From: Agathobacter sp.
GTDB lineage: Bacteria > Bacillota > Clostridia > Lachnospirales > Lachnospiraceae
NCBI GenBank assembly: GCA_036308285.1
Contig: JAXJVZ010000292.1
Location: 1 to 21,071, forward strand
Direction: 5' to 3'
Length of the DNA: 21,071 bases
The notes beneath the pieces were generated by a model, which was given only the letters and a program-made list of their open reading frames with translations, was not told the origin of the DNA and did no database searches. Each line of letters opens with the position of its first letter. Positions within the stretch are counted from its first letter, which is position 1. Made by a program: the position numbers and the translations under genes. Shown here piece after piece: positions 834-3,758 of this stretch.

Positions 834-1883
834 ATGAGTATGCCGGTATGGGAATCTGTCGCATTGAAATTAGCAGATACTCATCAAATTGATGATATTA
901 TTACTAAAGTTGAACTTGGTAAAATTAACTGGAAAACATTGAAAGCCTTAACAGATAGAGAGATTCTTACCAAAGTTGATGAAAATAATTTTAAATTTAC
1001 ATCAATTTATGAAAAGAAAGTGGCTGTAAAGAAATCTAATTCTTCTGATCACACTTTTAAGATTCATAAATCACATAATCAATATTATGCTCAGTATGTT
1101 GAAGAAGGCGCAACAGCTTTAGTAAATAATGAATCCATTCCTAATAATGTAAAGAATTTTTCTTTTAAAGACTGGGAATGTGATTTTATGAATACTGGTA
1201 TTAGTCGAATTGCAGGTTTTCTTAAAAATTTATATGGAGAATCTGCTCGTGCTATTTATACTGGTCGTAGAACTGGCTCTGAAAGTTGTGACATTATTAT
1301 TGACGATCAAGAAGTTGAAATTAAGTATTGTAAGAAGGATAATAGTACATATTTCAATACTTCAGTTAGCTATTTCGATTCATATGGCCTTGAATCTTTA
1401 AAAAGTTATATGATTAAATATGGAGTTTACGATTTATTAGTACCATATTTTGGAGATAGTGTTTTTGAAGGAAAATCTCCAATTGATGCGAAAGAAGCTT
1501 CTGCTTTTACCGAAAAATACGAAGATTTTTATAAGAAAGTTTATCTTCCTAAAGAGCATGAAGCTCGTGCAGCTTATGTTCAAATGGTTTATGAATTTTT
1601 CTCTAATAATCCAGAAGCTCTAGATACTTTTGTACAGGATATGTTAACTAAGGCTCCAGCAGGAAAGCACGTTCCAGACCTGCTTTTAATTTATCATTAT
1701 GATCTTGATGAAATTGTCACTTTTACAAAAGAAGAAATTTTAAATATGTCTGGAGAAATTTTTGAGAAACGTAGAGATTTCACTTTCCAGTTTAAGGGAT
1801 TTCATATTACAATCGCATGGCAGAATTGTACTGGTTTAAATAATCCCACTATTAGAGTATTTATCGATAAGAAAGGAAATTAA
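834..1883 (+). CDS. hypothetical protein, possibly a PD-(D/E)XK restriction-endonuclease-like nuclease (…SCDIIIDDQEVEIKYCKK…) encoded directly upstream of a DNA methyltransferase
   Basis: 349-aa AT-rich ORF. It has a D-x8-E-I-K motif compatible with a PD-(D/E)XK core. Its synteny with the downstream gamma-class MTase suggests the R subunit of a Type II R-M pair. The functional call is weak. Confidence 0.4.
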   Translation: MSMPVWESVALKLADTHQIDDIITKVELGKINWKTLKALTDREILTKVDENNFKFTSIYEKKVAVKKSNSSDHTFKIHKSHNQYYAQYVEEGATALVNNESIPNNVKNFSFKDWECDFMNTGISRIAGFLKNLYGESARAIYTGRRTGSESCDIIIDDQEVEIKYCKKDNSTYFNTSVSYFDSYGLESLKSYMIKYGVYDLLVPYFGDSVFEGKSPIDAKEASAFTEKYEDFYKKVYLPKEHEARAAYVQMVYEFFSNNPEALDTFVQDMLTKAPAGKHVPDLLLIYHYDLDEIVTFTKEEILNMSGEIFEKRRDFTFQFKGFHITIAWQNCTGLNNPTIRVFIDKKGN

Positions 1884-1885
1884 AA

Positions 1886-2755
1886 ATGCCTGGATTAGAC
1901 AAATTCTATACTTAGAAGCACGTAGCAAAAGAGTGCTTTGAATTTTTACATAAACAATTAAATATTCCCGAATCAGCTATTTATCTTGAGCCAAGTGCAG
2001 GAGCAGGTTCTTTTATTGACCTACTTTAGCATTATATTGCTCTTGATATAGCTCCAGAAGACGATCGTATTGAAAAACAAGATTATCTAAAATATCAAAC
2101 AGATAAAACTGATTTTATTACTATTGGTAATCCTCCTTTTGGTAATCGATCTAAACTGGCAACTGATTTCTTTAATAAGGCGGCTTCTATGTCTGAAGTT
2201 ATCGCCTTTATTGTGCCAGTTTCTTTTATGAAATGGAGTGTTCAAAAGAATTTAAGTTCTAATTTTTCTCTTCATAGCTATATGTATCTTGAACCAGAAT
2301 CATTCTCAGATAATGGTCAGCCATATAGCGTCAGAACTGTTTTTTAGATTTGGGTAAAAAATGGTTCTGTCTATGATAATGGAACTAATTTGCGCTTAAA
2401 GAAATCTCCCCCAGTATCCCACTCAGACTTTAAGATTTGGCAATATAATGCCACTCCAGAAGCAGTCAAGTATGTAGACGAAGATTGGAAGTATGCCACT
2501 TATCGACAGGGTTATCATAATTATAATGAGACATTTACTCATAAAGATTATGAATATATTAGAGAAAAAATGACTGGCGCAAAGAAGCAGCAATTTTTCT
2601 TTATTAAACCATTGACTGCGGAAGCAGAGAAAATTATTCTGGAAATGGATTTTAATGCTTTGGCTGAACGAAATACTGCTACACCAGGTTTCGGTAAGGG
2701 TGATTTTGTAAGCTATTATACTGAATTAAAGGAGTCAAAATATGGAAATTCCTAA
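1886..2755 (+). CDS. N6-adenine DNA methyltransferase (gamma class: motif I EPSAGAGSF before motif IV NPPFG), readable only if three in-frame TAG codons (1913, 2027, 2345) are sense
   Basis: ATG at 1886 with an AAAGGAAA RBS. A single 290-codon frame contains FxGxG and (D/N)PPF motifs in gamma-class order. It is interrupted only by TAGs, never by TAA or TGA, and ends with TAA. The ORF track reports only the last 121 aa. Confidence 0.65.
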
Positions 2756-3758
2756 GCAAACATATCAATATAAGAATGTTAATTACGACTTGGAATAGAT
2801 TCTTGCTTTCTACCAGACTAACCGAATTGACACAAACCTTGATTGTCAACGAGGTTATGTCTGGACCCCAGAGCAGAAGCAACAGTTAATTGACACTCTT
2901 GTTTTTAGAGAACGTATTCCTGAATTTCATGTTATCAAAGAAGCTGAGGAATCAATTTTCCATTACGCTGATGGAAAACAGCGTATTACTACAATTATCA
3001 ACTTCTTAACTGATGAATTGCCTTGGGAGCGCAGTCAAGCAGATCCTGCTTTTAGAGCGCTGTTTAATAAGAAATCTAAATTAAAATTCTCTGAATTACC
3101 AGACAATTTTAGATATATGATTCTTAGTACTCAAATTCCAATGGCTTGTTATAGTAATATGACACCTGCGTCCACTACAAAGCTATTTAGAAAACTAAAT
3201 AGCGGCACATCCTTGGGAGAATTCCAAAAGGGTCTAGCAGAAAATATCTCTATTAAGCAATATTTTCTAAATGATCTAATGCTTCATCCTGTTATTCCTA
3301 AGATTTTTAATAAATCTAAAATTGAAAAAGGTAATGCGGAACAGGCTCTTATTAGAATTATGATTCTTATGGAAAAATTTGATAACGGAGAATCCTTTGA
3401 ATGTAGTTTGCGCCCACCTGAATTATCTAAATATTATCTTGACCTTGAAAAAGCTACAGAAGCAGAGAGCTGGGCTTATGTTGAGAAACTTCAACATTAT
3501 AAGAGTATTATCAAGAAATTTTTAGATCAGCTTAATACTTCTAATATTGATTTAATGACTCGTTCCGATTATGTTTTACTCTTTAGCGTATTTTATGCTT
3601 ATAAAGACAAATTGAGTGAAGATGGTATGAAAATTTTATATGAAGAACTAAATTCAACTAATGCTACCGCTATCGCTGGTAGTGGTGCCGATTATAGTTC
3701 TGTAAATATTAAAAAATTCCTCAAATACATAGATAAAATCGTATATACAAAAACCTAA
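2742..3758 (+). CDS. DUF262 (ParB-like/GmrSD N-terminal nuclease domain) protein, with one in-frame TAG at 2796
   Basis: Motifs …LDCQRGYVWTPEQKQQLIDTL… and …HYADGKQRITTI… match the DUF262 signatures (QR.Y.W and DGQQR). An ATG at 2742 overlaps the MTase stop. The ORF track starts only at 3018. Confidence 0.6.

Follow-up and report, generated by a model that had tools for sequence, protein, structure and literature searches.

The locus considered here raises the question of why a phage operon should keep its putative nuclease readable under the standard genetic code while the methylase and the DUF262 protein encoded behind it carry in-frame TAG codons. It occupies positions 756-3758 of the window, that is, the whole 21,071-nucleotide (nt) stretch of contig JAXJVZ010000292.1 (assembly GCA_036308285.1). 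A preliminary description had reported a TAG-free open reading frame (ORF), called ORF1 below, upstream of a methylase with three TAG and a DUF262 protein with one TAG, and the genes were recovered at the same positions, all on the + strand. Comparison with relatives (loci numbered with the prefix L) showed that the family conserves this TAG asymmetry, which is no peculiarity of the window. We regard as evenly poised the reading that positions 756-3758 form a self-contained, mobile Type II restriction-modification (R-M) module, in which TAG recoding would make the nuclease available immediately and delay or throttle the methylase and the DUF262 protein. The features of the unit are as follows.

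645-675, + strand: hairpin terminator, a 13-bp perfect inverted repeat followed by a T-run, which closes the gene at 166-630 and sets the 5' limit of the unit
756-830, + strand: cassette promoter and leader found by promoter scan, with -35 TTGATT at 772-777, N17, extended -10 TGATATAAT at 792-800 and then an AAGGA ribosome-binding site
834-1883, + strand: ORF1, predicted Type II restriction endonuclease, 349 amino acids (aa), TAA stop, no in-frame TAG
1886-2755, + strand: predicted N6-adenine DNA methyltransferase, 289 aa, three in-frame TAG and no TAA or TGA
2742-3758, + strand: DUF262 protein (GmrS/ParB-like NTPase fold), 338 aa, one in-frame TAG
3770-3798, + strand: downstream promoter copy TTGAAA-N17-TATAAT with extended -10, which drives a vault-protein-like gene and sets the 3' limit of the cassette

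TAG asymmetry between the predicted nuclease and its partners

TAG usage was compared in 15 non-redundant loci with at least one TAG in the methylase or DUF262 gene (the recoded loci). Among the glutamine codons of these loci, TAG accounts for 0/141 in ORF1, as against 46/206 in the methylase (Fisher p = 4e-12) and 11/104 in DUF262 (Fisher p = 6e-5). The standard-code nuclease beside a TAG-bearing methylase, which the preliminary description had singled out as unusual, is thus conserved across the set. In the subset found via the methylase or DUF262 only, which is unbiased for ORF1 because an intact ORF1 was no selection criterion, the counts are 0/126 for ORF1 and 45/194 for the methylase (p = 2e-11). 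The long flanking ORFs of the recoded loci provide the background: 16 of 37 are TAG-free, and TAG makes up 18% of their glutamine codons. For the window taken singly, the lack of TAG in ORF1 does not reach significance (8 glutamine codons; neighbouring low-GC genes with 14-28% TAG; P about 0.07-0.3).

The in-frame TAG codons of the methylase are located at 1913-1915 (codon 10), 2027-2029 (codon 48) and 2345-2347 (codon 154), and that of DUF262 at 2796-2798 (codon 19). Their alignment columns hold glutamine in most or all homologues, and both frames run without a TAA or TGA interruption. None of the genes in the window ends in TAG, and the ORF at 8122-9057 contains ten in-frame TAG and no other stop. 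In L004-L006, a tRNA array surrounds the cassette and includes, 2.4 kb 5' of it, a tRNA with anticodon CTA (the L004 tRNA was confirmed by Rfam), and L037 also carries a tRNA with this anticodon. The tail-fibre and LRR genes just upstream in L007 contain 12 and 19 TAG and only 1-2 CAG. The codon picture of the window and L007 matches that of published gut phages with standard-code-compatible early genes and recoded late genes (10.1101/2021.08.26.457843; PMC10607447). Borges et al. (10.1101/2021.08.26.457843) presented a model of early standard-code genes and later recoded genes, and reported that recoding is found preferentially in lysis genes, structural genes and an intron endonuclease. The cassette is carried by a gut phage of virulent type that decodes TAG as glutamine. 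Similar recoded gut phages are described in the phAss-1 paper, where the cassette is not mentioned (PMC10607447), and a megablast of the whole window against GenBank phages gave no match.

Were TAG a genuine stop here, one would be dealing with assembly errors or with methylase and DUF262 pseudogenes in decay. The failure to find a suppressor tRNA in the window would agree with this, but the frames are otherwise intact, TAG falls on conserved glutamine columns, independently assembled relatives (L007, L008 and L122) show TAG at the same positions, a neighbouring ORF combines ten TAG with no other stop, and relatives carry a suppressor tRNA(CUA). Pseudogenisation was rejected on the intact frames and the conserved glutamine positions, and the probability of the true-stop explanation is practically negligible. 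As a separate observation, L004 has a ROOL RNA (Rfam RF03087, 323 bits) in the phage tRNA array, near a 95-nt suppressor tRNA(CTA), the two covering 2456-3054 and 5555-5649.

Heavily recoded methylases are nearly devoid of CAG (TAG 9 and CAG 0 in L141, TAG 7 and CAG 1 in L129, TAG 6 and CAG 0 in L034), and the ORF1 adjoining these CAG-depleted methylases retains CAG. Along the 15 recoded methylases, TAG codons are distributed 29/15/4 over the protein thirds, compared with 69/73/65 for all glutamine codons. Counted as 23 distinct TAG columns, the thirds are 13/7/3 against 16/16/16 glutamine columns, a test that is suggestive only since the lineages share ancestry. In 11/15 recoded methylases, TAG stands at codon 10, where DKFYTQ has its Q. 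Such clustering at the N-terminus yields an early stop, which is what a translational gate would favour. A general bias concerning the TAG trinucleotide in ORF1 was considered and rejected, out-of-frame TAG being normal there (4 and 8).

These data bear on an explanation by dose or robustness and not by timing, in which TAG, as an inefficient glutamine codon, accumulates by drift in mobile genes that are AT-rich and weakly expressed (the methylase, DUF262 and homing endonucleases), with no restriction-before-modification programme. Selection would remove TAG from ORF1, either because of harm done by truncated nuclease or to allow efficient synthesis of the full-length protein. TAG use does track low GC at third codon positions (GC3) in the window: glutamine is encoded by 46 CAA, 19 CAG and 22 TAG (22/87) in the low-GC genes, and by 122 CAG, 13 CAA and 4 TAG (4/139) in the high-GC core genes. 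The TAG loads of DUF262 and the methylase also vary widely among loci, and the suppressor tRNA and cassette share a promoter class in L004. However, ORF1 has a GC3 of 0.18, the same low level as its TAG-bearing neighbours, and yet contains 0/141 TAG, and the homing-endonuclease-like nucleases of the window (HNH and DUF2726-type) are TAG-rich, in contrast to the TAG-free ORF1. The concentration of methylase TAG in the first third and at codon 10 fits a gate better than drift. We consider the dose explanation unlikely.

A further locus, L140 (1097-3346), has a methylase homologue with 1 TAG, upstream of which lie another methylase (2 TAG) and a 174-aa TAG-free ORF without a Pfam match. The latter may be a second, unrelated nuclease partner with the same TAG split.

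The predicted nuclease, methylase and DUF262 protein

The preliminary description had left undecided whether 834-1883 encodes a PD-(D/E)XK restriction endonuclease or the methylase is an orphan anti-restriction enzyme, and had proposed structure prediction to decide it. ORF1 is predicted to comprise a winged helix (aa 1-55, 834-998), a disordered linker (aa 62-72) and a PD-(D/E)XK core (aa 79-349, 1068-1880). The candidate catalytic residues E90 (1101-1103), D153 (1290-1292), E162 (1317-1319) and K164 (1323-1325), in the pattern E...D-x8-E-x-K, are invariant in an alignment of 37-38 homologues. The 37 homologues found are metagenomic, and a C-terminal WQNGxGLNNP motif is conserved. An AlphaFold2 model built from the homologue alignment was confident (predicted local distance difference test 88, predicted template-modelling score 0.73). 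In this model, D153 and E162-x-K164 are positioned at or within adjacent predicted strands (154-156 and 159-166), as expected for a PD-(D/E)XK core, and E90 is on the preceding helix. A Foldseek search with the model returned HinP1I as the only significant match (E = 1e-4, prob 1.00), with MspI also among the structural best matches. The fold raised in the preliminary description is supported at the level of prediction.

No sequence family could be assigned to ORF1 in Pfam (E <= 0.1), PHROGs, PADLOC, NCBIfam or PDB by sequence or profile, and tblastn against GenBank phages gave no match. This lack of assignment, together with structural scores that are only moderate, would suit an ORF1 that is not the cognate restriction enzyme and instead is another nuclease or DNA-binding protein involved in mobility, homing or host takeover, the methylase being an orphan with an anti-restriction role, of the kind that many phages carry. 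Methylase relatives without ORF1 at 50-56% identity (L021-L030 and L163-L178), lone genes at 29-38% identity in cultured phages, and the behaviour of the cassette as a mobile island among homing-endonuclease genes point the same way. Against this, ORF1 is strictly head-to-tail with, and directly 5' of, a methylase of this family at a spacing of 2-20 nt in 68 loci, of which 45 are non-redundant; the structure searches gave their top and only significant scores with genuine Type IIP restriction enzymes, and the catalytic residues are invariant. Two very different ORF1 alleles also coexist with one methylase, a situation to be expected where the methylase determines which site is protected. The non-cognate explanation is improbable in our view, and a genuine PD-(D/E)XK restriction-type nuclease is the favoured prediction for ORF1, on the invariant residues and the adjacency. 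We infer both nuclease activity and specificity for this protein.

ORF1 comes in two lengths, a long one that includes the winged helix and a short one of about 265-280 aa. A link between the winged helix and the presence of DUF262 was considered but does not hold generally, since a short ORF1 is accompanied by DUF262 in L031, L034 and L037. A search for the recognition site by palindrome avoidance was likewise unproductive: GATC and TGCA are depleted 2-2.7 fold relative to the Markov expectation in the window and pooled relatives, and no site is absent. This depletion probably reflects generic avoidance of host restriction sites.

The methylase contains, in N-to-C order, motif X DKFYT (1898-1912), motif I EPSAGAGSF (1988-2014) and motif IV NPPF (2129-2140), and EPSAGAGSF and NPPF are invariant across the family. 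The order X-I-IV is the gamma-class arrangement typical of N6-adenine enzymes. The protein matches the PADLOC MTase_II model PDLC03274 over its full length (4.9e-55), and the PHROGs phrog_5172 (1.6e-46) and phrog_799 ('DNA methyltransferase'). The initial assignment as a gamma-class N6-adenine methyltransferase agrees with the motif order, the NPPF motif and the end-to-end match to the Type II methylase model. No relatives were found in Pfam, NCBIfam or solved structures, and the closest relatives among GenBank phages are at most 38% identical.

The third protein had been introduced as a DUF262 nuclease. Its GmrS-like N-terminal fold is present (Pfam GmrSD_N, 2.7e-12), with an invariant DGKQR motif at 2970-2984, and its best structural matches are BrxU and SspE, with about 170 residues aligned to BrxU. 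The nuclease label found no support, as no recognisable nuclease domain, DUF1524 included, was found by Pfam past residue 173 or by structural matching, and the C-terminal half is all-helical. A single-sequence scan of viral contigs for DUF262 returned nothing, and a profile scan returned mostly distant DUF262 proteins without an R-M pair. Relatives of this DUF262 subfamily occur singly, flanked by RecJ-like and PolIII-alpha genes (L035, 5001-6020), and as a GIY-YIG fusion between gyrB and gyrA (L039, 5001-6326), a placement typical of free-standing homing endonucleases. The DUF262 data suggest that this domain normally works together with a nuclease.

Transcription and mobility of the cassette

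The three genes had been described as one unit behind a phage promoter, and the layout agrees: ORF1 and the methylase are separated by 2 nt, the methylase and DUF262 overlap by 14 nt, and the unit is delimited by the terminator at 645-675 and the promoters at 772-800 and 3770-3798. The cassette is a low-GC island (0.30-0.34) flanked by genes with GC of 0.52 and 0.47. Its promoter has a near-consensus sigma70-type -35, an extended -10 and a conserved leader. This promoter-plus-leader element occurs in seven copies within the window (about 54-116, 756-830, 3758-3830, 7380-7446, 10472-10548, 16040-16111 and 17895-17960), with the form TTGATTTT...AAAAAATATGaTATAATAT...AAAGTTAAGAAAGGA. It is kept in front of the cassette in relatives and also precedes tRNA genes in related phages; in L004, one element type stands ahead of both the suppressor tRNA and the cassette. 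An inverted repeat near the cassette promoter (743-750 / 771-778), a candidate operator, is not conserved in relatives, and a search of the unit for a separate controller gene found no extra small ORF. Since transcription does not separate the three genes and, in L004, the suppressor, any ordering must be translational, and the length of the lag would be set by the speed at which charged suppressor accumulates.

Among the examined loci, the ORF1-methylase pair turns up in several distinct settings within phage genomes; the adjacency holds in every context recovered via ORF1 and in most contexts recovered via the methylase. DUF262 follows the pair in some lineages of both ORF1 forms. Homology of the window to L007 and L008 begins at the promoter (about 756-767), and the upstream neighbours differ, which indicates that the promoter and the three genes move as a unit. 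A bacterial origin of ORF1 was considered and rejected, as only two contigs of metagenome-assembled genomes carry it in a scan of 185,579 bacterial and archaeal species genomes (one per species). Within the unit, one segment has been exchanged.

1009-1832 (L008 6176-6999), + strand: ORF1 core segment swapped in the sister phage L008 (blastn), the L008 allele having about 36% aa identity

The DNA flanks of this segment (756-1009 and 1832-7303) are 93-95% identical between the window and L008. The swap boundary falls exactly at the linker, and the winged helix, methylase, DUF262 and downstream genes are 93-99% identical. Nuclease alleles therefore recombine independently of the methylase.

The swap gives weight to history as the cause of the asymmetry, and not selection: ORF1 alleles would often be replaced from standard-code phages and so be young and TAG-free, and the more conserved methylase would have been resident longer. 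In agreement, the core (1009-1832) differs between the window and L008 where the methylase and flanks are 94-99% identical, and ORF1 diverges much faster than the methylase (34% vs 82% identity). The family also occurs in phages without TAG inside the cassette, where ORF1 sometimes ends in TAG (L009, L012 and L016). However, this explanation would require all 15 independent recoded lineages to be young simultaneously. TAG and CAR (CAA or CAG) interchange at codon 48 within methylases that are 98-99% identical (window vs L007 and L008), so that gain of TAG is rapid on the scale of the 5% by which the window ORF1 has diverged from that of L007 (95% identical). Moreover, the L034 ORF1 is fully AT-adapted (CAA 12, CAG 2) and still without TAG, beside a methylase with 6 TAG. 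A purely historical origin is quite improbable.

In L016 (5191-6867), ORF1 and the methylase lie in the same frame and are separated only by TAG-CGT-TAT-TAG, so read-through would fuse both; the L016 cassette shows no other sign of recoding.

Proposed translational ordering and comparison with known systems

In the proposed mechanism, the three genes would be co-transcribed from a host-type sigma70 promoter and be unequally translatable. Because ORF1 has no TAG, host ribosomes could finish it at once under the standard code. Synthesis of the methylase would halt at codon 10 and that of the DUF262 protein at codon 19 until the phage suppressor tRNA(CUA) competes with release factor 1; restriction would come first, and modification and the DUF262 protein later or at a lower dose. 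The incoming phage genome, already methylated from the previous cycle, would be safe, and unmethylated host DNA and the DNA of a co-infecting rival phage would be exposed to the nuclease. The methylase would arrive in time to protect replicated phage DNA, and hemimethylated daughter DNA would resist cleavage until it appears; hemimethylated sites are generally resistant to Type II enzymes. The DUF262 protein might serve as an accessory GmrS-like protein that senses DNA or NTP. We infer both the sequence in which the proteins appear and its purpose, which may be degradation of host DNA or exclusion of rival phages.

Several points weigh against this mechanism. No suppressor tRNA, or any tRNA, was found in the 21-kb window. 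In L004, the suppressor tRNA lies behind the same promoter type as the cassette, and the lag may consist only of the build-up of charged suppressor; the effect could thus be one of dose rather than order, and any delay would be translational and possibly short. A truly delayed methylase would leave early-replicated phage DNA unprotected for a stage, so that the mechanism works only if hemimethylated DNA resists cleavage. For DUF262, the TAG load is smaller and changes between loci (0 in L004 and L034). The recoded status was also scored partly by methylase TAG, which slightly inflates the contrast; with one TAG per locus subtracted, it is 31/191 vs 0/141.

We hold it plausible, though somewhat short of an even chance, that stop-codon reassignment acts as a translational timer, and possibly as an anti-theft lock, within this R-M operon. 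The nuclease would act on host and rival DNA from the first minutes, and the methylase and the GmrS-like sensor would be made only with an active suppressor tRNA. If this is true, toxin and antidote would be ordered without any regulator protein, and a captured protective gene would be useless to standard-code hosts or competitors. Full-text literature searches found no report of a nuclease and methylase split by genetic code, and the text of 10.1101/2021.08.26.457843 contains neither restriction nor methyltransferase.

Among known systems, the cassette resembles Type IIP R-M systems with monomeric HinP1I/MspI-like enzymes in its adjacent, co-oriented nuclease and methylase genes, and in a predicted PD-(D/E)XK core, for which R.HinP1I and R.MspI are the structural best matches, with a D...(E/Q/N)-x-K catalytic signature. 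It differs from them in that ORF1 belongs to no sequence family and has an extra N-terminal winged helix in its subfamily. The partner in the cassette is an N6-adenine (NPPF) methylase, whereas the partners of HinP1I and MspI are C5-cytosine methylases. Unlike these Type IIP systems, the cassette is essentially phage-borne, places the nuclease gene first and has no controller gene.

With the GmrSD, BrxU and SspE proteins (Type IV, DUF262 plus DUF1524), the cassette protein shares an N-terminal ParB/Srx-like DUF262 fold and a DGQQR-type motif (DGKQR here). The C-terminal DUF1524 His-Me nuclease of those proteins is absent, with a helical domain instead, and the relatives of the cassette subfamily are solitary or GIY-YIG-fused in homing-endonuclease-like placement.

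In R-M systems with a controller, the C-protein holds back the nuclease and gives the methylase a head start. The cassette would share with them a built-in staggering of nuclease and methylase from one locus; here, however, the delayed partner would be the methylase and the device a codon, not a transcription factor. The proposed order, restriction first, is the reverse of that in cellular R-M systems.

Closer precedents for a lytic virus with a complete R-M pair are found in viruses of eukaryotes. Chlorovirus restriction endonucleases are packaged in virions and degrade host DNA, and the melbournevirus restriction endonuclease is transcribed before its methyltransferase and excludes rival viruses (PMC7253447). 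In the chlorovirus and marseillevirus systems the nuclease comes ahead of the methylase, as would be the case here. The order there arises from virion packaging or transcription, whereas here the promoter is shared and the order would come from a reassigned stop codon. The cassette suggests a way in which lytic phages may reverse the usual precedence of the methylase, something that giant viruses of eukaryotes achieve differently.

The phage itself is similar to the code 15 gut phages of Borges et al. in having TAG at glutamine positions, suppressor tRNA(CUA) in relatives, heavily recoded structural genes, TAG-free early genes and recoded homing-endonuclease genes. Unlike the pattern in that study, the boundary between code classes falls inside a single operon, between a toxin-like and an antidote-like gene. 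Recoded phages are common in gut viromes, and the evidence for regulation by recoding comes mainly from the enrichment of late and lysis genes. A code boundary inside one operon, with shared promoter and transcript, provides a compact and internally controlled test case for the hypothesis that a code switch acts as a timer, and the expected phenotypes (host DNA cleavage, self-protection and exclusion of rivals) are easily scored. As a predicted restriction enzyme, ORF1 would also add a family missed by current sequence libraries.

The rest of the window contains further genes in both codon classes. An 837-aa major-vault-protein-like gene (3833-6346; Pfam MVP_shoulder 1.2e-17, Vault_3 1.7e-8) is TAG-free and GC-rich, and such a gene is also directly 3' of the cassette in the sister phage L008. 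An open-ended SPFH/flotillin-like gene with a long Ala/Glu/Lys-rich coiled coil (19639-21071), assigned by reading its sequence only, is likewise TAG-free and GC-rich. Low-GC, TAG-rich homing-endonuclease-like genes are located at 17020-17889, 8122-9057 and 6371-7117 (minus strand), and comprise one double NUMOD4+HNH_3 protein (4 TAG) and two zinc-ribbon-repeat proteins with DUF2726-like C-termini (10 and 4 TAG). Finally, the region 12865-16035 holds an NAD-related gene cluster, all TAG-free, with a NAMPT-like phosphoribosyltransferase, a Macro domain, NAD synthase (NadE) and NADAR, which may constitute an NAD-restoring counter-defence set.

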